Assembly (NCBI GenBank): GCA_903893805.1
Contig: CAITNM010000026.1
Location: 69,664-133,663, forward strand
Direction: 5' to 3'
Length of the DNA stretch: 64,000 nucleotides
Source: an uncultured Alphaproteobacteria bacterium
Lineage (GTDB): Bacteria; Pseudomonadota; Alphaproteobacteria; Paracaedibacterales; CAITNM01
Position numbers and translations under genes: made by a program. Position 1 is the first letter of the stretch. The number at the start of each line of letters is the position of its first letter. The notes under the pieces were generated by a model. That model saw only the letters and a list, made by a program, of their open reading frames with translations. It was not told the origin of the DNA and ran no database searches. Shown here in pieces: positions 2 to 60,907 of the stretch.

Positions 2-409
2 GCTCCTGTGGCTCCTGAAGCTGGATTCTCTGCTTTACTAGCTGGTATGACAAGTTCGTGCCCAATTCAAAGGCATCCTAAAGTGGCTGTTGGTGATGCA
101 GCTTCTCAAGCTTTGATAACATTGGCAGAAGCTACAAGATTCCCTTATGCGATCAATGGTATTAGCTTGACTGGGGACTATGCAACTACGTTTGCTGCAA
201 CCTCTGACATTGTGGATCCGACTGCTGATTCTGCAAGTGCTGGCTTCACAGTTGATGAGCATAGTGTACTTACGATTTTGCATAGTCGTGGTCACACTGA
301 ATTGCCTGCTATTTCGTCTTACCTAGTACCTGGAGGTACTTCTAACATCGTAGTAACAATGGATGCGTCTACGGTTAAGCTTCCAAAACTATCACCTCCA
401 CTAGACTAA
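2..409 (+). CDS. 3' end of a window-truncated ORF; Ala/Thr/Ser-rich putative exported protein, family unclear
   Basis: The frame is open from the window edge to TAA at 407-409; track ORF 8..409 is only the part from the GTG onward. Composition resembles the downstream paralog array. Followed by a CCCCCA/TGGGGG hairpin plus T-run (442-499). Confidence 0.4.
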   Translation, partial: APVAPEAGFSALLAGMTSSCPIQRHPKVAVGDAASQALITLAEATRFPYAINGISLTGDYATTFAATSDIVDPTADSASAGFTVDEHSVLTILHSRGHTELPAISSYLVPGGTSNIVVTMDASTVKLPKLSPPLD

Positions 410-9187: not shown

Positions 9188-9688
9188 CTACTGATCTAAC
9201 TGAAATGAGACAGGAATTTCAAACGATACTTCTTTGCCATTAACATTGAACGTCCACTGCTTCATTGTTTTAAGAAGTTCTTCTTCGAATGGAGCTTTGT
9301 CTCCTTTGATAGTTATTACTTCAATATGCTTAACAGTGCCGGTAGAACTCACTAAAAGCTTCACTGAAAAGCTTCCTTCTTCTCCATTGGCTTTAGCATT
9401 AACAGGATAAGTAGGAGCAGGATTATAAATAACAGACGGCGCAGAAGCAAAATTTTCTGTAGTTACTTGGCTAATAACATGAGCGCTTTTTTTCTGCGCT
9501 CTATTAGCAGAATTTTTTTGAGAAGAAACGTTAACATTTTCACCAATACCTTTAGAGGAAGTTAGTAATCTTACGGAAAAGCTGTGTGATATTTTCTGAT
9601 CTGAGCGCTGCGTATATTGTCCAATAGAAAAAGCAAGCAGACCGTGAATGCAAACTGAACCTATGCACAAGTAACGCATTTTTACCAT
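9188..9688 (-). CDS. TonB-family C-terminal domain protein (energy transducer)
   Basis: N-terminal TM segment. C-terminus PAPTYPVNAKANGEEGSFSVKLLVSSTGTVKHIEV matches the TonB_C fold. The start overlaps or abuts the btuB stop. Confidence 0.7.
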   Translation of the reverse strand: MVKMRYLCIGSVCIHGLLAFSIGQYTQRSDQKISHSFSVRLLTSSKGIGENVNVSSQKNSANRAQKKSAHVISQVTTENFASAPSVIYNPAPTYPVNAKANGEEGSFSVKLLVSSTGTVKHIEVITIKGDKAPFEEELLKTMKQWTFNVNGKEVSFEIPVSFQLDQ

Positions 9689-11493
9689 GTTATGCTTATC
9701 CCCGTGTTAATCTGGAATCCGGGACTCCTGTATCCCGGCGGGCTTTCAATCCTGCGCGCTAAAGCATTTTCAACTGCTACATGCCACGTTGCTTGTTCTT
9801 TAAACTTGTATTGAAAATCACCAAAAAATACAGGGTAGCCACCACGCTTAACCGGTGCATAATTTTCAAAATCAGGCTGAACTTGATGCCCTGTATAACG
9901 CCAACCAACGCTTGTCGTAATGTCTTCTTTTTCATAAAAAATTCTACCATTAGCTGTAACTTTTGGGATATTCATAAGGTTTTTTTTCGGCTTCAAACTA
10001 ACTGATTCAGTATACATACATGATAACTGTGTCCCCCACGGACCAATTTGGTTTTTCCAACCAAGCTCAAAACCCTTTTGGAGAGACTTATTAAGGTTAA
10101 CGTACTTATCGTTTTTGTAATCAATTTGCCGTTTATGTTCAGTTCTAAAAAGAAGAACACTAAATGTACCTGCACTCGTTTTTTGAGCAACGCCTAAATT
10201 GCCACCATAAGCTGTTTCATGTTTCAAACTCTTATTGCCGTACTTTTTATCATTTAACATATATAAATTAGGTAATTGAAATCCTGTACCAATGTGAGCT
10301 GAAAACTCAGTATCAATATGTGTTTTTAACAAACTTGAACTAAATGCATAAACAGGGTTGTAATGATCTGCTTTTTGAACGCGTGCCCAGTTTTTCCACT
10401 TAACCGTATCCTTATCTAAATGAATTCCTTGTGCAAAGGCATATTCTTTATTCTTTGTTTGTTTTGCCCCTGTAAAATCAAGTGTATTGTTATGATATTC
10501 CGCAACGGGTTCAAAAACTACTGAATCGTTTTTTATCTTAATTCCAAATTTTGCCTTACCACTACAACTCCGACCGGTGCCATTACTGCCTATATAAGGA
10601 GAAAAATCTTGAGAAATACCTATAGTACTTAAACCCTTTAAGTAAGGCTGTATACGTTCATCTTTCCCTTCTAAATCAAGCTCATAAATCTGCAGCGTTC
10701 TTTTTGATCTAGAATCATATGGACTTACTCGAGATATATCACTTCCTGTGGAGGCTGATTTAATTAACCCCATTTGCAATGTTGCTTTGACATGATGGCT
10801 ATCAAAACTCAGTCGATTTAAAAAATAACGCTTCTCTGTCTCAGGACTTTTTGCAGTTGGGTATTTAGCTTGGTAACGTTTTGGTATGGAATTATTTCCG
10901 TGAAAGGTGTCACCTTCTATATGTTGCTGCAGAAAAAAACCATCCTGAGATTTTTGACGCCACCATAAATGACCAGATTTAGCACAATTGCCCGCACTTA
11001 ATTTCAAGCCTCCGCTCTGACCATCCGGCATAGAAAATGGAATAACATTAACCACACCACCAATAGCTCCGTTGCCATATTCAGCGCAGTGTATGCCTTT
11101 TACAACTTCAACCTTTCCTGTTGAAAGCGGAATAAGGGCAGCATCTGTTTCTGTTTCACTAATGCTAAGACCTGACCAAAGCATTTTAGTGTATTTTGAA
11201 GTTGACCCTTGAATGCTTATGGTAGTTAGTTGCCCAGGGTTGCCATTTGTTGTGGTTGTGACGCCCGGAATATTTTTTAGTTGTTGCTCTTCAAATCCAG
11301 GAGTTGTTACGCGATTAGTGGCTAACGATTCAATAAATTGCCATGCTGAAGGAGGCAGTTCTTTCTTTGCTTTCACAACAATAGGCTCCAACACCACGGT
11401 TGATGCATGCAATGATGCTACAAAAATAATGCATAAAAATAAGCGCAATGAATTGGCCTCCACAGGTTCGCACAATATAAGCGCGTCACCCAT
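9682..11493 (-). CDS. btuB: TonB-dependent outer-membrane receptor, vitamin B12 transporter BtuB-like
   Basis: TonB box/plug (VVLEPIVVKA...GVTTTTNG...ISIQG), C-terminal ...GISITW, and a cobalamin riboswitch immediately upstream. Confidence 0.85.
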   Translation of the reverse strand: MGDALILCEPVEANSLRLFLCIIFVASLHASTVVLEPIVVKAKKELPPSAWQFIESLATNRVTTPGFEEQQLKNIPGVTTTTNGNPGQLTTISIQGSTSKYTKMLWSGLSISETETDAALIPLSTGKVEVVKGIHCAEYGNGAIGGVVNVIPFSMPDGQSGGLKLSAGNCAKSGHLWWRQKSQDGFFLQQHIEGDTFHGNNSIPKRYQAKYPTAKSPETEKRYFLNRLSFDSHHVKATLQMGLIKSASTGSDISRVSPYDSRSKRTLQIYELDLEGKDERIQPYLKGLSTIGISQDFSPYIGSNGTGRSCSGKAKFGIKIKNDSVVFEPVAEYHNNTLDFTGAKQTKNKEYAFAQGIHLDKDTVKWKNWARVQKADHYNPVYAFSSSLLKTHIDTEFSAHIGTGFQLPNLYMLNDKKYGNKSLKHETAYGGNLGVAQKTSAGTFSVLLFRTEHKRQIDYKNDKYVNLNKSLQKGFELGWKNQIGPWGTQLSCMYTESVSLKPKKNLMNIPKVTANGRIFYEKEDITTSVGWRYTGHQVQPDFENYAPVKRGGYPVFFGDFQYKFKEQATWHVAVENALARRIESPPGYRSPGFQINTGISITW

Positions 11494-31292: not shown

Positions 31293-31532
31293 AGACTGAT
31301 TAAATCACTGAACGTAATAATATTACTTTATTTTCATATTATTTATAAAATTAATGCAATATTAAAGTTTTTTGCACCAAAATAAAGATGTAAAAAACAT
31401 TTTAAAATAAAGTGACTTTGAAACTTCTCTTTTTTAGAGAGTTCTTAGCAAAGGAAGTAAATTGACTATCAAGTATTGCTAAGTTGTCATCTTCAAAAGT
31501 GTCGTTAGAGCCCCTTTATTTGAGGAGGCCAC

Positions 31533-33083
31533 ATGATTAGCCCAAATCTTAAATTAATTTTTATCTGCACGCTGTTAGCATCATCAAGAGTTATTTCAAT
31601 GGATAGTGGTATAATGCCACCAGATGACTCATCTACTGCAGTACCAAGAAATGGCAGCATTGCATCAGCAACAGATGACCCTTTTGGAAAATTAATGAGA
31701 ACGTTAAATTTTTTGAGCGTGTCCAAGGGAAAGATTGAGCCATGGAAAAATGCTATTTCTGCATATCAGCAATCATTATCTGATAATGCAGAAATATCAA
31801 CATTAGCAAGCATAAGAGAAAGAATTCTAGGAGAACCTTTAGCAAAGCGTAAAATGGCGATGGTTAACAGAGCGTTCAGTAGTTTGACAAATGACTCTAC
31901 TGCTCCGGTGGCTTTTACTCCCAAGCCTTGTGCTCCTATGCAAATTATTGTATTTCAAACTCCCGCAACGAGAGAAAGACCTGCACTCAGTAGTGAAACA
32001 CGAAAACGTGTTACAGCAAAACCTCCTATACTTTCAAGTGTAATGGAGGGAAGAGATTCCCTTGTTGGTAAAGAAGCTATTCCTGCACAGGCCATTAAGG
32101 CGCATATGATGAATTTTATTGCTGGGCAAGATACTGCTCTTGAAGCGCTTAGCTTTTTAGCACATCGCTTTTTGTGTAATAAATTATTGCTTGATAGGGA
32201 CGGTATGCCTGCTAGTAAACCATCACACTGCATATTAACGGGTCCAACAGGATGTGGAAAAAGTGAGAGTCTTAAGCAATTGGGGCTATTTTTAGGTGTG
32301 CCTATCCTGAATATTAATGCACGAAGCCTAACTGATGAAGGATTTAAAGGGCAAAATTTCAGCGAATGTGTTTCTAGTTTTTGTGAAGAAAACGGAAATC
32401 CAAAATCGGCCATTATTGCAATCGATGAAATTGATAAGCTTGCAGCACGAGGAGATGATGAAGCACGAAATTTTGGTAGAGCAGTTCAACGTGTTCTGTT
32501 ATCGCCTTTAGACGGTAATTCTATTTCATTAAAAAGAAAACGATTTGATCTTACAAATTGGTGGTTTATTGGAACGGGTGCTTTTTCTGATTTGAAAGGT
32601 CGACATGACGTAGAAGGGGAGCGCACATCAACGGCTAGAACTCAACAAGATATTATTAGTGCTGGTTTTGAACCTGAATTCGTTGGTCGTTTTCCTTCAG
32701 TTATTGCCTTCAAAGGTCACACAATTGCGACAATGATGGACGTCATTGAGCGTGATGGATCTCCCTTAAGGAAAATACAAAATGAATTTAAGCGTTTTTA
32801 TGGGGTAAATCTTACTGTTGAAGCGGCAGCCTTACGACGTCTAGCGTCCACAAGCATCGAAATAAATCTTGGAGTAAGAAGCTTAGACACAATTCTAAAC
32901 ATGGCATTGCAACCTTTTTATGGACAAGCAATGGAGCTAATAGCAGTAGAGGGCGAGACATCATTAGTTGCAACTTTAAAGGATATTATGCCTGCTATTG
33001 AGCAATTTAAGAAAGATAATAAAGAAGCTCCTAAAGATCGTTTTGCAGGAATGTCAGAAGAGGTAAGAAGAATGTGGATCTAG
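31533..33083 (+). CDS. Orphan ClpX-like AAA+ ATPase with a novel ~210-aa N-terminal region; no zinc-binding domain, no IGF loop
   Basis: SD GAGGAGG. GPTGCGKS, pore-loop position EGFKGQN (ClpX has AGYVGED), IIAIDEIDKL, FIGTGAF and PEFVGRFP. Hydrophobic N-terminus LKLIFICTLLASS. Confidence 0.75.
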   Translation: MISPNLKLIFICTLLASSRVISMDSGIMPPDDSSTAVPRNGSIASATDDPFGKLMRTLNFLSVSKGKIEPWKNAISAYQQSLSDNAEISTLASIRERILGEPLAKRKMAMVNRAFSSLTNDSTAPVAFTPKPCAPMQIIVFQTPATRERPALSSETRKRVTAKPPILSSVMEGRDSLVGKEAIPAQAIKAHMMNFIAGQDTALEALSFLAHRFLCNKLLLDRDGMPASKPSHCILTGPTGCGKSESLKQLGLFLGVPILNINARSLTDEGFKGQNFSECVSSFCEENGNPKSAIIAIDEIDKLAARGDDEARNFGRAVQRVLLSPLDGNSISLKRKRFDLTNWWFIGTGAFSDLKGRHDVEGERTSTARTQQDIISAGFEPEFVGRFPSVIAFKGHTIATMMDVIERDGSPLRKIQNEFKRFYGVNLTVEAAALRRLASTSIEINLGVRSLDTILNMALQPFYGQAMELIAVEGETSLVATLKDIMPAIEQFKKDNKEAPKDRFAGMSEEVRRMWI

Positions 33084-33095
33084 AAAAAACTATAC

Positions 33096-33869
33096 TTACT
33101 TGGCGCTTATTTTTATAAGCGCCATTGTAATTGCAGACACACAAACAATTGCGGGACCTGTAGGCAAATCAAAATAGAGACTTGCGCCAATACCGATTAA
33201 ACTTGAAAAGCAGCTAATCAGTATGGCTGATGTAATCATTTCAGATGGCGTTTTTGAGCGATATCTAGCAGCAGCTGCTGGAATAATTGTAAGTGCTGGC
33301 GCAAATAATGCCCCTAACATTTTCATGACAATTCCCATAATTATTGCATACGAAACAAGCACCATTAGACGTATTATTTTTGATGGAAATCCTTGAACTT
33401 TTGCAAGATCAGCATCAAAGCTTGTCATTAAAATTGCTGACCAATATTTAGCAACAAACCCCCATAAAGCGAGAAGTGCTGCAACAAGAAGAACAATATC
33501 AGACAAGCTGGTACTAAGTAAATCACCAAACAGCAATGTATTTGGGTCAAGGTTTGCTCTTGGAAACAGTGAAATAATTAATATGCTGAAAGAAAGGCAA
33601 CTGTACGAAATAACAGCCAATGATACATCACTTTGTTTTGATGATTTGTGTGCAACAAAATATGCAATGCATAAACATACTAAAATGGCACCAAGGGCAT
33701 ATGGTACTTGTAAAAGTATGCTGAAGCACACACCCAGTAGTGAAGCGTGGGCCAACGTATCTCCAAAGAAAGCAAGTCCATTCCAAAGACCTATGCAGCC
33801 CAAAGGTGCAGTAATTAAACTGGCTAAAAGCGCAGAAACAATTATGAAAATTACGAATGAATCAATCAT
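33096..33869 (-). CDS. znuB: Zinc/manganese ABC transporter permease (ABC-3 family, ZnuB-like)
   Basis: FFGDTLAHASLLGV motif, multi-TM. Start taken at MIDSF (33869); the track start at 33905 is also possible. Confidence 0.8.
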   Translation of the reverse strand: MIDSFVIFIIVSALLASLITAPLGCIGLWNGLAFFGDTLAHASLLGVCFSILLQVPYALGAILVCLCIAYFVAHKSSKQSDVSLAVISYSCLSFSILIISLFPRANLDPNTLLFGDLLSTSLSDIVLLVAALLALWGFVAKYWSAILMTSFDADLAKVQGFPSKIIRLMVLVSYAIIMGIVMKMLGALFAPALTIIPAAAARYRSKTPSEMITSAILISCFSSLIGIGASLYFDLPTGPAIVCVSAITMALIKISAK

Positions 33870-34551
33870 AATGGTGATGATCGTGACGATGTTGATACGG
33901 AGCAAAACCAGGGAATAGTTTTTGCACTTCTTGGACCTGACGTACTTTTTCAGGTGTTCCTTGGCAGCAAACGTGATGATTCAAACAAATCACATGATCT
34001 GTGCAATCAAACACAAAATGCAAATCATGAGAAATAAGCACAATAGCCATATTGTATTCATTTTTCAGTTCTATCAGCTTGCTGTAAAATGCAGACTGCC
34101 CATCGGCATCAATTCCTTGCGTGGGCTCGTCTAAAATTAGGACATCTGGTCTTTTCAAAACAGCGGCATTAAAAAGAACCTTTTGCAATTCCCCGCCCGA
34201 TAAAGCATGAATTGATCTATTCATTAAAAGAGAAATATCAAATGGGTATTCAATTTTTTGTTGCCCGCATAGACTTAGAAATGTCCGCACCGTCATTGGC
34301 ATAAACCGATTCGCATGAAGCTTTTGTGGAACATATCCCATTTGTATATTTTTTTTTCGGTTAATAGAACCAGCAGTGGGTTCAATTAGTCCCAAAATCA
34401 GTCGCACCAGAGTGGTTTTGCCAGCGCCGTTTGGGCCAATTATTGTTGTGACGCTATTTGGCGAAATGCCAAAATTGATATCATGCAATAAAGTTTTGCT
34501 TTGTGATTCTTGTTTAAGAGTATATTCAACGGACTTTAATGAAATTAACAT
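33862..34551 (-). CDS. znuC: Zinc ABC transporter ATP-binding protein ZnuC-like
   Basis: GPNGAGKTT, LSGGELQ, ILDEPTQGID and His-rich tail HRHDHHHYD. Start taken at MLISLK, which forms a TAATG overlap with the mraY stop; the track start is 34608. Confidence 0.8.
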   Translation of the reverse strand: MLISLKSVEYTLKQESQSKTLLHDINFGISPNSVTTIIGPNGAGKTTLVRLILGLIEPTAGSINRKKNIQMGYVPQKLHANRFMPMTVRTFLSLCGQQKIEYPFDISLLMNRSIHALSGGELQKVLFNAAVLKRPDVLILDEPTQGIDADGQSAFYSKLIELKNEYNMAIVLISHDLHFVFDCTDHVICLNHHVCCQGTPEKVRQVQEVQKLFPGFAPYQHRHDHHHYD

Positions 34552-35639
34552 TAGCGAATTTTCAATGTTGCAAGACCAACTAAGGCGAGAATAGATGCAA
34601 TAATCCAAAAACGTATAACGACGGTAGATTCAGCCCATCCCAATTTTTCAAAATGATGATGAATAGGAGCCATTAGAAAAATACGTTTTTTTGTAAGTTT
34701 GTAGTATACAACTTGCAAAATGACAGACACAGCTTCTAACACAAACAAACCACCAATAATACACAATACAAATTCATGTTTTGTGATCAACGCAATGGTG
34801 CCTAATGCGCCTCCAGCAGCAAGTGATCCCGTATCTCCCATAAATACTTTTGCAGGAGGCGCGTTAAACCATAAAAAGCCCAATCCTGCACCAATAAGAC
34901 TGCCTAAAAAGATGCATACTTCTCCGACATTTGCCACATAATGTAGTTGTAGATAAGGCGCAAAAATGTGGTTGCCCACAAGGTAAGCAATAATTGTAAA
35001 ACACACAGAACATATCATCACCGGGACAATCGCTAGCCCATCAAGCCCATCGGTTAAGTTAACAGCATTTGATGATCCTACAATCACAAGCACAGCCCAC
35101 GGATAAAAAAACCAACTTAAGTTAACAATGAAATCTTTGAAAAAAGGAAATGTTAAGCTATGCGAAAGGCTTGCATCTGTATAATGAGCTGATGCATATG
35201 CAACAATTATTGCGAGTGTGGTCTGTCCAAGCAATTTTGTTTTTCCCGAAATTCCATGATGGGAATTTTTAGTGAGTTTTTTGTAATCATCCATGGCACC
35301 TAGAGCTCCAAATCCAAGAGTAACAAGTAGCACTATCCATAAAAATGCATTTGCCAAATCTCCCCATACCAAAGTACTTATAGAAACAGCGAGTAAAATC
35401 AAACACCCTCCCATAGTAGGGGTTCCTTTTTTTGTCACAAGATGAGATTCAGGACCATCGCTACGAATAGGCTGGCCTTGTTTTTGCTTTGACTTAAGCC
35501 AGGCAATAATAGGTTTCCCCAAACAAAAGCTAATTATTAAAGCGGTTAAAATGGCTCCCATAGTGCGAAAAGTAATATATCGCAGAAGGTTGAAAACCTT
35601 AAAATCACCAAAAATATGAAGACAGAAAAATTGTAACAT
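34551..35639 (-). CDS. mraY: Phospho-N-acetylmuramoyl-pentapeptide transferase
   Basis: [18 protein letters not shown] and [12 protein letters not shown]-like motifs; 10-TM profile. Confidence 0.95.
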
Positions 35640-35643
35640 TGCG

Positions 35644-36579
35644 CTAACTATGTCGGTTGGTTGTTATTGAGTGATTGAAAGAAAGGCTTTTATACTCTTT
35701 GGACAGAAAACCGCGTTGCCATTCAATTCCAGAAATTCGGTCTGCAGGCATCTGTGAGTTTTTACCATGCACAATAGTTGCTTCGTTAGGAAAAAATGTT
35801 AATACAAAGTTCGCATACATTTCATATTCTGAAAAGACCTGACTAGAAATTTCAGGGGTATTTAAAACATCCTGCCATGGTTTGTCATGCAATTTTTCTA
35901 GCCTATTTTTCATGGCTTTGAGCTTTGATTTGTCAAAAAACATATGCTGACTATTGAAATCAAGATTGTAATATTTTTCAAGTTTTAATACTGATTCGAC
36001 CATAAGCTTGCAGTCTAACACATACTTATTACAGACATTGAAAACAGCTTTATCTTCCCGAAGAAATATTTGAGTTTGCAACAAAACTGTATCGGCATCA
36101 ATCACTAGGTAATAATCTGAGGTAATGACGGTATCTGCGTTCAGCTTAATGAGCTGTTGTTTTAAATATCCTGACAAATCGTTGCTTCGAGCAAGTTGGG
36201 GAATAACTTTTGTTTCTTCCACAAACTCGCAGCCTTTTTCTAAGGCTACATTCCTTAACTTTTCAGACTCTGGGCAAATTAAATAAATTTTATTGATAGG
36301 GTGCATTATCAACCCTTTCGCAGCATCAATTGCATGACGAATTGTTGGTAAATCTTTTTCAATGCACAAAAAAACAACGTCAATTTTAGTCTGACATAAC
36401 GGAACATGGTTGTTAGAATAGCGGTCTCTTTTAAAAGACAAAAGCTTCATGAAAAGCTTTCTTTTGTAAATATGCCACTTTGTATCTTCAATCGGTAACT
36501 CTTCAGGTGTTGTTATAAGCCAAACACTTAAAATTGTTATGGAAATCAGCAGTGATAGTAAAGCCAAAAAGCGCTTCAT
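35644..36579 (-). CDS. Membrane-anchored GT-A-like putative glycosyltransferase (DUF6492-like), paralog B
   Basis: N-terminal TM segment; [11 protein letters not shown]...; [14 protein letters not shown]...[10 protein letters not shown] (DxD). Full-length paralog of 36583..37524. Confidence 0.5.
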
Positions 36580-36582
36580 ATA

Positions 36583-37524
36583 TTATTGCCCTGTCATGCC
36601 TTCAATTGTTAAAAAGCTATGCATCGTCATGCTTTTGTATTTGCAGCTTAAATATTCTCGTGCATAACTAATGCTGGAAAGTCCATTGCGTGGAAAAAGC
36701 ACGTTACTTCCTAAAACAAGCTCAATTTCATTTTCAAAGCATTGCGCCACAAAGTTGCCATACAGTTCATATTCGGAAAAGCCACCCTCAGGAATGTTCA
36801 AGGTATCAAGTGCATCTTGCCATGGAAGTCCATGCAGATTTTGCAAATGTTGTTTTAAAGCTTTTAATTTTGTTTTGCAAATCAGCATATGGTGGCTAGT
36901 GAAATCAACATTATGAAATTTATCAAACCCCAAGGCAATTTTCACCATTTGTTTTCGATCAAGCCAATAATCATGCAAAATATTCAGAACTTCTTTATTT
37001 TCTGTTACAAAAATCTGAGGGCGAATCAAAATTGTGTCTGCGTCAATAATAAGGAAATGTTCGCATGTCCCAACTTTATCAGCATTAAGCTTTAAATATT
37101 GCTGTTTAATCCATCCCTTTCGATTGGTATTATTCGAAAATGTAGGCAGTACCGTATCTTCTAAAACAAATACACAATTCTTTTCTTGAGCAATTTTGCG
37201 CAATATTATAGATTCTGGTGCGATCAGATAAATATTGGAAATAGGCTGCAAAATATTGCCACGCACCGAATCAATAGTTAGTACTAAAGTTTCAGCATCT
37301 TTTTCAATAACAGGAATGACCACGTCAATTGGCATCTTGCTTAAGGGGACATGCAAGTTACAAAAAGGGTCACGTTTTATTTTTAAATATGCGTAATGAA
37401 TGTAGCGTAAAAATTGTTGATATTTTGAGTCTTGTTTAGGTAAATAAGTAGGATGACACGCGTAATACACAAAGCACATTGCGCAAATTAGGATTGCAAA
37501 AGCACATTGAGTAATTCTTTTCAT
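36583..37524 (-). CDS. Membrane-anchored GT-A-like putative glycosyltransferase (DUF6492-like), paralog A
   Basis: N-terminal TM segment; IDVVIPVIEKD...; KGWIKQQYLKLNAD...HFLIIDADTI (DxD). Confidence 0.5.
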   Translation of the reverse strand: MKRITQCAFAILICAMCFVYYACHPTYLPKQDSKYQQFLRYIHYAYLKIKRDPFCNLHVPLSKMPIDVVIPVIEKDAETLVLTIDSVRGNILQPISNIYLIAPESIILRKIAQEKNCVFVLEDTVLPTFSNNTNRKGWIKQQYLKLNADKVGTCEHFLIIDADTILIRPQIFVTENKEVLNILHDYWLDRKQMVKIALGFDKFHNVDFTSHHMLICKTKLKALKQHLQNLHGLPWQDALDTLNIPEGGFSEYELYGNFVAQCFENEIELVLGSNVLFPRNGLSSISYAREYLSCKYKSMTMHSFLTIEGMTGQ

Positions 37525-59374: not shown

Positions 59375-60907
59375 ATGAGTAAGACAGACAATTCAACGCC
59401 AGAGTTTACGGGCTTACGTGCTCGACTTTGGCCAATTCACGCACATGAGCTAAAAAAGTTTATCCCTCTAGGCATTATTATGTTTTGCCTATTGTTTAAC
59501 TACACTATTCTTCGTGATACGAAGGATTCTTTAGTAGTTAACTCAGCGGGCGCGGGAGCCATTACGTTTTTGAAGCTATACTGCGTTACACCGGCAGCGA
59601 TATTATTCGTTGTTTTGTACGCAAAGCTGACAAACGCTATGTCACGTGAAAATGTATTCTACGCTGTAGTTGCGCCATTCATAATATTTTTTGGTATTTT
59701 TGGATTCGTAATTTACCCAAATCTTCACATGCTTCATCCTTCAGTTGAATCAATTCAAGCGCTACATGCTGCTTATCCTAATTTAAGTGGATTCATTGAT
59801 TTGTACGCATACTGGGCATTTTCTTTGTTCTATGTTCTTTCTGAAATTTGGGGAAGTGCAATGATTGCGTTAATGTTCTGGCAATTTGCTAACCATGTTG
59901 TGCGCTTGCGTGAATCAAAGCGTTTCTACGGGTTATTTGCTGTTATTGGAAATGCAGCGTTAGTAGTTTCTGGACCTACAGTTATGTACTGTTCTGAGCA
60001 TATTAAGCACATGGTCCCAGAAGGCGTGGATCCTTGGCAAATAACATTATACCTTCTTATGTCTGCAGTTGTAGTCATGGGCTTGGTTGCTATGTATACA
60101 TACCGTTGGATGCACAAAGAAGTGTTAACTAACAAGTTGTATTTCAACCCAGAAGAAGAAGGCGCGCCAAAGAAGAAGAAAAAAGAAAAGCCAGGTCTTA
60201 TGGAGAGCTTTAAAATTATTGTTCAGTCACCTGAGCTTGGTTTGATTGCCCTTTTGATTATGGCTTACGGCGTAACTATTAACTTGGTTGAAGTTCAATG
60301 GAAAAACCAATTAGGTTTATTTTGTTCTGGAAATAAAGGACTTTTCAACTATTACATGGGCATTTTGTCTACTGCTACTGGTATTTTCACAATTCTATTT
60401 GGACTCTTTGTTGGCTCAAATATTTTGAGAAAAGTAAGCTGGGCAAAAGCTGCGATGATTACTCCTTTGGTAATTTTGGTTGGCGGCGGAGCATTCTTCT
60501 GCTTCATCCTAGCTGAAGGTATGATGGAACCATTTTTGCAGTTCTTTAATACTCATGCGATTGCTGCTGCAATGTTTATTGGTTTAGGTATCGTTGTTGT
60601 GTCAAAGGCTATTAAATACATTTTGTTCGATCCCACAAAGGAAATGGCTTACATTCCATTGGATGATGAGCTAAAGACAAAAGGTAAGGCTGCTGTTGAC
60701 GTTATTGGTGGTCGTGCTGGTAAAGCCGGCGGTGCTTTTGTGCAAAACATGTTATTAATTGCTTTTGCAACTAAAGACGTTGTTTCAATTGCACCAATTG
60801 CATTTGCAGTGTTTGCTGTAGTTGCAGTGGCTTGGTTATATGCTGTTAAAGCACTTTCAGTGAAAGTGACCGCGGCAACTGCCAAGAAAAAACTAGAACA
60901 AGCATAA
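59375..60907 (+). CDS. tlc: ATP/ADP translocase (Tlc/Npt family nucleotide transporter)
   Basis: LWPIHAHELKKFIPLGIIMFCLLFNYTILRDTKDSLVV is the hallmark N-terminus. About 12 TM segments, 510 aa, SD AAGAGGA. Confidence 0.95.
   Translation: MSKTDNSTPEFTGLRARLWPIHAHELKKFIPLGIIMFCLLFNYTILRDTKDSLVVNSAGAGAITFLKLYCVTPAAILFVVLYAKLTNAMSRENVFYAVVAPFIIFFGIFGFVIYPNLHMLHPSVESIQALHAAYPNLSGFIDLYAYWAFSLFYVLSEIWGSAMIALMFWQFANHVVRLRESKRFYGLFAVIGNAALVVSGPTVMYCSEHIKHMVPEGVDPWQITLYLLMSAVVVMGLVAMYTYRWMHKEVLTNKLYFNPEEEGAPKKKKKEKPGLMESFKIIVQSPELGLIALLIMAYGVTINLVEVQWKNQLGLFCSGNKGLFNYYMGILSTATGIFTILFGLFVGSNILRKVSWAKAAMITPLVILVGGGAFFCFILAEGMMEPFLQFFNTHAIAAAMFIGLGIVVVSKAIKYILFDPTKEMAYIPLDDELKTKGKAAVDVIGGRAGKAGGAFVQNMLLIAFATKDVVSIAPIAFAVFAVVAVAWLYAVKALSVKVTAATAKKKLEQA

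Follow-up and report, generated by a model that had tools for sequence, protein, structure and literature searches.

We propose, tentatively and with a probability of about 0.4, that P0001, a 516-residue protein encoded by a Finniella-like member of the Paracaedibacteraceae, is an active hexameric unfoldase that is exported, acts independently of ClpP and would dock to a ring-shaped partner through its C-terminal tail. Judged from its sequence, residues 178-495 are an intact AAA+ module of the ClpX/HslU (HCLR) clade. Bacterial AAA+ unfoldases are regarded as cytoplasmic machines working with ClpP, HslV, Lon or FtsH; the P0001 family combines a secretion signal, an AAA+ motor without ClpP-docking elements and a C-terminal motif resembling that of proteasome activators. 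No description of this AAA+ family was found in the literature or among curated families.

The gene, its AAA+ core and its family

The P0001 gene lies in the window (the whole 64,000-nucleotide stretch of DNA that was analysed) as a single open reading frame that runs from the ATG at 31533 to the TAG at 33081-33083; its features are collected in Table 1. The preceding spacer, which begins at the first base past the uvrC stop (31293), has a GC content of 27%, compared with 39% in the P0001 coding sequence and 39% in the window, and with the GAGGAGG sequence close to its end this bears out the 240-nt AT-rich spacer and strong Shine-Dalgarno sequence described in an earlier note on this DNA. A promoter scan of the + strand from 31293 to 31532 gave no site exceeding shuffle expectation. 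The hairpin downstream, between the convergent P0001 and ABC-3 permease genes, is likely to be a bidirectional terminator. A weak hint that the gene is transcribed comes from a single freshwater metatranscriptome, in which two short contigs (244-274 nt) match 31509-31993 at 95-97% identity; DNA carry-over may be their source.

Table 1. Features of the P0001 gene and its flanking DNA (window coordinates; aa, residues of P0001)
Feature	Residues (aa)	Position	Strand	Basis or remark
AT-rich intergenic spacer, 240 nt, 3' of uvrC		31293..31532	+	27% GC
Shine-Dalgarno GAGGAGG of P0001 gene		31522-31528	+	motif location
CDS, ClpX/HslU-like AAA+ protein P0001	516 aa	31533..33083	+	ORF list, translation; TAG included
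Sec-type signal peptide-like segment	1-22	31533..31598	+	conserved in all full-length homologues
Acidic Pro/Ser-rich segment, conserved PPDD	23-47	31599..31673	+	predicted disordered
Small four-helix N-domain, family-specific	48-120	31674..31892	+	AF2
Pro/Ser/Thr-rich variable linker	121-177	31893..32063	+	predicted disordered
AAA+ large subdomain	178-390	32064..32702	+	Pfam, PDB relatives, alignments
Walker A GPTGCGKS	237-244	32241-32264	+
SLTDEGFKGQNF, pore-1 region	265-276		+	motif location
Pore-1 GFKG	270-273	32340-32351	+
Walker B IIAIDEIDK (DEID)	294-302	32412-32438	+
Pore-2 segment, short		32508-32564	+	HslU-length
FIGTGAF	345-351	32565-32585	+
Arg-finger box PEFVGRFP	381-388	32673-32696	+
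AAA+ small subdomain	391-495	32703..33017	+
Sensor-2 GVRSL	447-451	32871-32885	+
C-terminal tail DNKE...RRMWI-COOH	496-516	33018..33080	+
M-W-I, last three residues		33072-33080	+	family [M/L]-[Y/W/F]-x motif
Perfect 10-bp hairpin		33101..33124	.	between convergent P0001 and ABC-3 permease genes

That the core is ClpX-like, as the earlier note had read from its motifs, is upheld by their positions, by a Pfam match to AAA_2 (2e-14, residues 232-389), and by comparisons of sequence and fold: ClpX chains are the closest solved structures in the PDB (E 3e-18) and rank first when the AF2 model of P0001 is searched with Foldseek (E 5e-17). The key residues of Walker A (K243), Walker B (D298/E299), the Arg finger (R386) and sensor 2 (R449) do not vary among 23 homologues. 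The pore-1 loop reads G-F/Y-K-G across the family, and alignment with the genome's own ClpX confirms GFKG in P0001 in place of GYVG.

P0001 nevertheless scores far below the cut-offs of the NCBIfam ClpX profiles (68 bits vs 370.75 for TIGR00382; 88 vs 359 for NF003745), whereas the genome's true clpX reaches 659 bits. The three absences that the earlier note had reported all held up. The C4 zinc-binding domain is replaced by an unrelated N-terminal region, with neither a CxxC...CxxC pattern nor a zf-C4_ClpX match found by Pfam or in the ClpX alignment. The IGF loop is missing: a 19-residue gap falls exactly opposite ...GSGIGFGVDV of ClpX, and in none of the 23 homologues does the stretch from FIGTGAF to PEFVGR contain a tripeptide of the form [ILMV]-G-[FLM]. 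Neither clpP nor lon is nearby, the P0001 gene being on contig C26, clpP on C16, clpX-lon on C40 and hslVU on C30. To these can be added the RKH loop, which is absent from P0001; in the alignment its pore-2/RKH segment falls short of that of ClpX by about 11 residues, with 13 residues after LDG compared with 25. Because canonical clpX-lon, clpP, hslVU and ftsH are all encoded elsewhere in the genome (the true clpX, expected by the earlier note, on C40), P0001 is an extra, lineage-specific paralogue, neither ClpX nor a partner of ClpP. It is not a clpX with a mis-called N-terminus, its start Met and hydrophobic segment being conserved in homologues.

P0001 had also been taken for an orphan, and this no longer stands: the family comprises more than 45 sequences and has sister clades across the order, and a second paralogue of the same architecture is encoded on another contig of the same genome. 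The combination of signal peptide, variable N-domain, IGF-less AAA+ module and MYx tail occurs in at least four lineages of one endosymbiont order, Ca. Odyssella included. An AU test (45 rows, LG+G4) did not reject a single clade of all signal-plus-tail proteins (p 0.30), which leaves a single origin unproven.

The N-terminal region and export

The hydrophobic start of P0001 had been described as signal- or anchor-like, and it is the signal that its charge and core features sustain. An n-region with K7 precedes an 11-residue uncharged core (LIFICTLLASS), which is followed by a c-region R-V-I-S and then by M-D-S-G. In the homologues the core spans 11-18 uncharged residues, with one or two K/R before it and a net charge of -2 to -5 in the next 15 residues, and most show ...I/L-x-A ahead of D/E in the putative cleavage region; these features are kept in all full-length members and in all sister clades. 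Manual feature analysis finds in P0001 the n-region, the core of 7-15 residues, the small residues at -3 and -1 and the lack of a lipobox that define a Sec (type I) signal. The segment also resembles the signals on exported lipoproteins encoded in the same genome; a lipoprotein was itself rejected, as the Cys within the hydrophobic core is not conserved. The segment is therefore better read as a cleavable Sec signal than as a tether to the membrane, and we infer that P0001 is exported from the bacterial cytoplasm.

No outer-membrane route for P0001 is evident in the genome. A type IV secretion effector, a possibility raised in the earlier note, was rejected, since no VirB4-type ATPase was found in the genome, which is estimated to be 100% complete. 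The only secretin-type genes found were two orphans, one with TPR repeats and one split, besides which a single T2SSE-family ATPase represents the type II secretion components. A conserved type VI secretion system is present; such systems do not use Sec signals. P0001 was also rejected as a replacement for ClpV, as a ClpB/ClpV-like protein of 876 aa is encoded on contig C28.

Beyond the signal, the N-terminal region appears to be particular to the family. Pfam gave no match to residues 1-185, and a language-model atlas search with the N-terminal region returned nothing usable. The N-domain, in which F51, W71 and I75 are conserved, is predicted by AF2 as four helices with a pLDDT of 83 when modelled alone. 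When this model was compared with 48,161 PDB chains the top Z score was 8.0, for a de novo designed protein; the helices of T3SS gatekeepers scored about 6, inside the noise range for helical bundles, and matches in the ESM atlas were generic small helical proteins only. The linker that follows (residues 121-177) is the least conserved part of the protein, with a mean identity of 22%.

The C-terminal motif and candidate partners

Of 59 relatives, 58 end in [M/L]-[Y/W/F]-x-COOH (P3, M in 51 and L in 7; P2, Y in 51, W in 5 and F in 2), compared with 1.45% of ORFs of at least 250 aa in the source genome. This ending is kept across clades whose tails are otherwise <30% identical, and in alignment A5 the penultimate Tyr does not vary. 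Signal and tail also occur together: among 134 library representatives, 9 have both, 6 the signal only, 2 the tail only and 117 neither (Fisher p 9e-9, the relatives not being independent of one another). Two other roles for the tail were considered and rejected. As a general sorting tag it would be expected more widely, but among 826 ORFs of at least 250 aa signal and tail coincide only in the two AAA+ paralogues; as a PDZ ligand or OMP beta-signal it fits poorly, given the S/T endings and an aromatic residue that is penultimate and not last. A conserved terminal motif of this kind is a hallmark of carboxylate-dependent docking, and P0001 probably docks to something, though not to ClpP.

The family motif resembles HbYX, defined by a hydrophobic residue at P3, Tyr at P2 (Phe tolerated), any residue at P1 and a free carboxylate, with residue preferences that are loosened by multivalency (PMC8907193). 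By this definition Tyr is at P2 in 51 of the 59 family tails; P0001, ending in M-W-I, has Trp there and not Tyr, and on Trp that paper is silent. A complex predicted from the last 125 residues (alignment A4) and two Thermoplasma 20S alpha subunits, used as a stand-in, scored 0.05, which speaks neither for nor against docking.

From these features of the sequence we infer where P0001 would act, that it would dock and what its partner might be. By way of a cleavable Sec signal peptide P0001 would leave the bacterial cytoplasm, and since the bacteria are free in the cytoplasm of the host it would from there reach the host side. Named members of this Paracaedibacteraceae group are cytoplasmic protist endosymbionts (PMC11909080). 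The fast-evolving four-helix N-domain, on its long flexible linker, would probably select targets, and the ATPase ring would thread them through the G-F/Y-K-G pore loops. Six [M/L]-[Y/W/F]-x tails would dock the ring on a ring-shaped partner, in the manner of the HbYX tails of PAN, Rpt and Mpa and of the HslU tail, with the host 20S proteasome as the leading candidate. In its most specific form, that endosymbionts of this group secrete their own proteasome cap, a ClpX/HslU-derived AAA+ ring seated on the host 20S by HbYX-like [M/L]-Y-x tails, whose variable N-domains pick out host proteins and feed them in without ubiquitin, the idea is improbable; if true, the cap would amount to an 'alternative regulatory particle' of bacterial origin, with amino acid supply or the removal of host defence factors as possible benefits. 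If P0001 is exported and active, it may be the first unfoldase known to serve as a bacterial effector, possibly one that hijacks the host proteasome. A homologue (WP_010299195.1) is encoded by Ca. Odyssella thessalonicensis, an organism that grows in Acanthamoeba, and the question is therefore one that can be tested at the bench.

The alternative that survives best, although we consider it somewhat unlikely, is that P0001 is exported by Sec and retained in the periplasm, where it would work as an ATP-driven unfoldase or translocase using host ATP, which can reach the periplasm of a bacterium surrounded by host cytosol; its tails might dock under a secretin-type envelope ring or onto a periplasmic protease, so that proteins are pulled out or in. 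The signal peptide and the lack of an obvious outer-membrane route are consistent with this, as is a TLC-family ATP/ADP translocase encoded within the window (~59390-60859), which means that host ATP must cross the periplasm, and HSP101 of the Plasmodium PTEX complex offers a precedent for an AAA+ motor outside the plasma membrane. However, we know of no periplasmic AAA+ ATPase in bacteria, and S/T last residues poorly suit PDZ recognition by periplasmic proteases. Nor is any partner gene conserved beside any copy: the neighbourhoods hold unrelated housekeeping genes (uvrC/ABC-3, DUF3576/NAD kinase, HlyD/AcrB and Der). If exported and active in this compartment, P0001 would be the first ATP-driven machine of the bacterial periplasm, enabled by host ATP. 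Either outcome, if true, would revise the view of protein turnover at the symbiont-host interface.

An unlikely reading places P0001 on the cytoplasmic side as an HslU derivative that has no I domain and serves HslV as an alternative cap, its N-terminus being an uncleaved anchor or inefficient. HslV is present in 56 of the 62 genomes of the order, the pore-2 segment of P0001 is of HslU length, and the Arg/His followed by three hydrophobic residues in the tail resembles R-F-I-L of HslU. In genus g3, relatives that carry the signal directly adjoin hslVU in four genomes and are divergently transcribed from it, which together with the tail likeness points to HslV and away from a host partner. That adjacency, however, occurs in one genus only; the P0001 gene is unlinked to hslV in the source genome, and the genes are unlinked also in families f3 and f8. 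The K/R before and the acidic residues after the 11-residue core predict N-in/C-out export and not an AAA+ domain in the cytoplasm, in the g3 copies likewise. Trees do not group the family with the well-supported HslU clade (SH-aLRT 100).

We give similarly low credence to a remodeller or disaggregase that works without any partner, in which the C-terminal motif would serve ring stability, autoinhibition or secretion. Such a protein would accord with the lack of an identified partner and of a neighbour conserved across copies, but this stand-alone reading, an option in the earlier note, is doubtful because the C-terminal [M/L]-[Y/W/F]-x is so strongly conserved: the last three residues are fixed while the rest of the tail diverges between clades, and the motif is absent from the genome's other exported proteins.

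At the same locus across genomes the flanking genes are 70-98% identical and the AAA+ gene 45-92%, a faster evolution than that of its flanks which would be effector-like; some genomes carry tandem triplications of the gene. This divergence and the irregular copies in the family (one split, one with degenerate catalytic motifs) could also suggest a decaying, functionless duplicate of clpX or hslU, but this is very improbable given that, of 13 further species of the genus that were searched, 12 keep the frame open and in synteny (the remaining one, G016, gave a match to the distant paralogue type alone), with a mean identity of 70% in the ATPase domain and catalytic residues that do not vary.

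Comparison with known systems

By sequence and fold ClpX is the nearest relative of P0001. Both have a single AAA+ module in which Walker A, pore-1, Walker B, PEF-GR and sensor-2 G-R-L follow in the same order, and neither has an I domain. ClpX carries a zinc N-domain, GYVG, and RKH and IGF loops, whereas P0001 lacks all four; the signal peptide, the four-helix N-domain and the conserved tail at the C-terminus are its own additions. With HslU it shares the short pore-2 segment and the missing IGF loop, and a basic residue followed by hydrophobics at the end of the tail (...R-F-I-L in HslU; ...R-M-W-I or ...H-M-Y-M in the family); HslU differs in having an I domain, the columns of which are blank for P0001 when it is aligned with HslU of the source genome, while the tail of P0001 is about 14 residues longer and a signal peptide is added. 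The HslU profile (TIGR00390) gives P0001 62.8 bits vs a cut-off of 362.45.

The HbYX activators (archaeal PAN; eukaryotic Rpt2/3/5, Cdc48/p97 and Blm10/PA200; mycobacterial Mpa and Bpa) have a terminal hydrophobic-Tyr-x in common with the family, and the ring ATPase architecture is shared with our reading of P0001. Divergent family members end in ...G-M-Y-x, reminiscent of G-Q-Y-L in Mpa and Bpa. The HbYX ATPases belong, however, to the classic AAA+ clade and bear a coiled-coil/OB ring, whereas P0001 is of the HCLR clade and has none; their partner is a 20S proteasome, whereas the bacterium here has no 20S proteasome, only HslV; and in some family members, P0001 included, the place of Tyr is taken by Trp or Phe. 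HSP101 of PTEX, a ClpB-type AAA+ unfoldase, bears a secretory signal and operates beyond the plasma membrane of its producer, inside a host cell. It differs in belonging to a eukaryotic parasite, in having two AAA+ rings and a defined translocon, and in lacking an HbYX-like tail, so that its likeness to P0001 is a functional analogy only.

The P0001 gene and its ATPase core

The gene for P0001, a 516-residue AAA+ protein, opens at window position 31533; the spacer after uvrC begins at position 31293, which the earlier note took as the start of the gene. Downstream, the ABC-3 permease and ABC ATPase genes, taken as their longest ORFs, share ~44 nt, and this overlap, like that with mraY, probably reflects start-codon choice rather than genuine overlap. 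The DUF6492 pair is absent from some close relatives (L010, L012 and L013), in which uvrD directly follows mraY. Two short metatranscriptome contigs give only a hint of transcription of the P0001 gene.

Pfam assigns P0001 only generic AAA_2/AAA domains (residues 232-389), and the protein scores 68-88 bits against the NCBIfam ClpX models (cut-offs 359-371) and 63 bits against HslU (cut-off 362). ClpX chains are both its closest solved structures (E 3e-18) and the top Foldseek matches (E 5e-17) to an AlphaFold2 model built from 23 homologues (mean pLDDT 67.6; mostly 75-90 in the AAA+ part). In an alignment of P0001 with ClpX (P0081) and HslU (P0082) of this genome, the three are in register at Walker A, Walker B, the Arg-finger box and sensor 2, and K243, E299, R386 and R449 are invariant across 23 family members. 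All motifs listed in the earlier note were located at the residues it gave, and the alignment bears out its reading of a GFKG pore-1 loop (G-F/Y-K-G in the family) in a protein lacking the zinc-binding domain and IGF loop: the C4 zinc domain of ClpX was not found in P0001, nor was the IGF loop, a 19-column gap standing opposite ...GSGIGFGVDV of ClpX. The RKH loop was likewise not found, the segment being of HslU length (13 residues; ClpX has 25), and alignment with P0082 revealed no HslU I domain. All known ClpP-docking elements, and the accessory elements specific to ClpX or HslU, have been lost.

The P0001 gene is an extra paralogue alongside a canonical clpX, which lies elsewhere in the 1.57 Mb assembly (47 contigs, estimated 100% complete), so it is not the only clpX with a mis-called start, a possibility that the earlier note had raised. 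No 20S proteasome was found in this genome, in which the hslV-hslU locus is the sole Proteasome-family match. The apparently split transporter-like gene near hslV may be a pseudogene or frameshift.

Coordinates of the P0001 locus, other genes of the genome and related loci (C, contig; L, locus; G, genome of the same order)
Feature	Location	Strand	Remarks
P0001 gene	window 31533-33083	+	single open frame, 516 aa
Spacer, uvrC to P0001 gene			240 nt, 27% GC
Shine-Dalgarno GAGGAGG	window 31522-31528		in spacer
Perfect 10-bp hairpin	window 33101-33124		between P0001 gene and convergent ABC-3 permease gene
ABC ATPase and mraY, longest ORFs	window 33862-34608 and 34551-35639	-	share ~58 nt
Two tandem DUF6492 genes	window 35644-36579 and 36583-37524	-	between mraY and uvrD
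TLC ATP/ADP translocase	window ~59390-60859 (C26:129053-130522)	+	577 bits
Second TLC match	C13		weaker
Canonical clpX	C40		ZBD, GYVG, RKH, IGF; lon directly after
clpP	C16
hslV-hslU	C30
Transporter-like gene, apparently split	C30:137395-138776 (L021:2113-3494)	-	upstream of hslV; ORFs of 186 aa (L021:2934-3494) and 276 aa (L021:2113-2943), ~10 nt overlap
ftsH	C46
ClpB/ClpV-like gene	C28
P0080 gene	C20:95437-97263 (L028:7438-9264)	+	608 aa; DUF3576 and NAD kinase genes on either side
Orphan secretins	C20 (L026:7840-9822); C41 (L027:8403-8981 plus 9211-10038)		T2SS/T4P neighbours absent; one fused to TPR repeats, the other split into Secretin_N_2 and Secretin ORFs
Relatives beside hslVU, genus g3	L049:1756-3093; L050:3470-4810; L051:3029-5053; L052:3579-4961		endings ...TLYS or ...TCYV
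Split P0001 orthologue	L017:8001-9587 (MAG JBKCOJ010000011)		syntenic; ORFs of 356 and 115 aa
Tandem triplications	L019:2601-7931; G014:C40:20767-26049		two MAGs

Signal, N-terminal module and C-terminal tail

Every full-length homologue of P0001 opens with one or two Lys/Arg and then a hydrophobic core, 11-18 residues long and free of charged residues. Behind the core come small residues, mostly in the form ...I/L-x-A, and a Pro-rich acidic stretch, and the 15 residues after the core carry a net charge of -2 to -5. This charge asymmetry predicts an N-in/C-out orientation, the core is below membrane-helix length in many members, and the segment resembles the signals of the genome's own exported lipoproteins. 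On these features, assessed by our own analysis, the N-terminus looks like a cleavable Sec signal and not like a cytoplasm-facing anchor; for the "signal/anchor-like" start described in the earlier note, a signal is thus the likelier reading.

Beyond the signal, residues 48-120, modelled by themselves, are predicted to form a bundle of four helices (pLDDT 83); the segments on either side (residues 23-47 and 121-177) are predicted to be disordered. Searches of Pfam, the PDB and the ESM atlas found no specific relative of this region. The bundle is duplicated in tandem in P0010, a 661-residue homologue (residues ~30-125 and ~163-253), and sister clades carry other modules in its place, as would be expected for a target-selection module.

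At the other end of the protein, 58 of 59 relatives terminate in [M/L]-[Y/W/F]-x, with M (51) or L (7) third from last, Y (51), W (5) or F (2) penultimate, and M, I, L, S, V or T last; P0001 itself ends R-R-M-W-I. Of the ORFs of at least 250 aa in this genome, only 1.45% end in the same way, and the motif is under strong constraint. Since its combination with a signal peptide is confined in this genome to two AAA+ paralogues, a general sorting tag is ruled out. The tail is similar to that of the genome's HslU (...R-F-I-L); the HslU tail inserts between HslV subunits. As a sequence pattern, the ending of most relatives also fits, and that of P0001, with Trp in place of Tyr, resembles, the published definition of the HbYX motif of proteasome activators, in which a hydrophobic residue precedes Tyr (Phe is tolerated in some activators) and any last residue, whose free carboxylate pairs with a Lys of the alpha-ring pocket; multivalent activators accept non-ideal versions (PMC8907193).

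Relatives and distribution

The nearest genomic loci come from MAGs whose labels read Candidatus Finniella inopinata (synteny kept, protein 92% identical), Ca. Finniella sp., Ca. Odyssella sp. or unnamed Alphaproteobacteria, and the window DNA recurs in metagenomes from lakes and freshwater. Named members of this group are cytoplasmic endosymbionts of protists (PMC11909080). Among 5.8 billion proteins, some 47 relatives were detected; each derives from a metagenome or MAG and lacks an informative name. A scan of 62 same-order genomes gave strong matches (E < 1e-150) for 12 of the 13 further species that share the window's genus, with up to three tandem copies in one genome; expansion by tandem triplication is typical of genes involved in host interaction. 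The order uvrC, P0001-type gene, ABC-3 permease is kept, with flanking proteins 70-98% identical to those of the window but P0001 orthologues only 45-92%. Mean identity within the family is 70% in the ATPase domain, 64% in the small domain, 46% in the N-domain and 22% in the linker, and this conservation disfavors a decaying duplicate. The split orthologue reflects either a frameshift/stop or an assembly error.

The second paralogue in this genome, P0080, is 30% identical to P0001 in the core and has a different N-region with two internal repeats; it shares a signal peptide, GFKG pore loop, absence of IGF and a comparable ending (...PPFGMYT). Searching 1.84 billion representatives with a profile revealed further clades with the same four features, including WP_010299195.1 from Ca. 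Odyssella thessalonicensis, and genome scans placed such clades in other families of the order (f3, 9/11 genomes; f8, 6/8), where the signal and an ending ...MY[S/M/T] are present at each of the six loci inspected. In a maximum likelihood tree of 93 sequences, the P0001 family and P0080 group form one clade (SH-aLRT 97), the other two signal-plus-tail clades have support of 99 and 100, and HslU is separate (100); the backbone lacks resolution, and a single origin of all signal-plus-tail proteins is not rejected (AU test, p 0.30). Among 134 representatives, 9 have both signal and tail, 6 the signal only, 2 the tail only and 117 neither, a co-occurrence far above chance, although relatedness inflates the statistic.

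Possible site of action and partner, and comparison with known systems

From the intact motor, lost docking elements, conserved signal, variable N-module and constrained tail, we infer a hexameric exported unfoldase. It would leave the bacterial cytoplasm via Sec, its N-domain would pick targets on a flexible linker, and its six C-terminal tails would dock the ring onto a ring-shaped partner. That P0001 is such an unfoldase, docking by its tail, independent of ClpP and working on the host side, is a tentative reading, with a probability of roughly 0.4. The bacteria live free in the host cytoplasm and have no 20S themselves, which makes the host 20S proteasome the candidate partner of greatest interest, although we consider this pairing improbable.

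The main competing explanation is that P0001 works in the periplasm. TLC ATP/ADP translocases are a hallmark of energy parasitism, and with one encoded in the genome, host ATP must cross the periplasm, which answers the objection normally raised against an ATPase in that compartment. No clear outer-membrane route was found in the genome, which has two orphan secretins, one T2SSE ATPase and no VirB4; it also has a T6SS, which does not use Sec signals. The split secretin may be a pseudogene. Docking on HslV would instead suit the HslU-like tail and pore-2 length of P0001, as well as the signal-bearing, ClpX-like relatives that adjoin hslV-hslU, divergently transcribed, in four genomes of the sister genus g3, and which could reflect the family's evolutionary origin or a functional link to HslV. 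However, this linkage is limited to g3, the family falls outside the HslU group, and predicted export, which extends to the g3 copies, argues against it. The copy at L052 has lost its pore loop, Walker B, Arg finger and sensor 2. P0001 could also be a true stand-alone remodeller.

Full-text literature searches found nothing relevant on a bacterial family of this kind, in which a ClpX/HslU-type motor carries a secretory signal and a docking-type tail. As a motor, P0001 is comparable by sequence to ClpX and HslU while failing the membership tests of both, and the family's tail is similar to those by which PAN/Rpt/Mpa and HslU dock. For an AAA+ motor combined with a secretory signal, the only known functional analogue is HSP101, which Plasmodium exports as part of its PTEX translocon.
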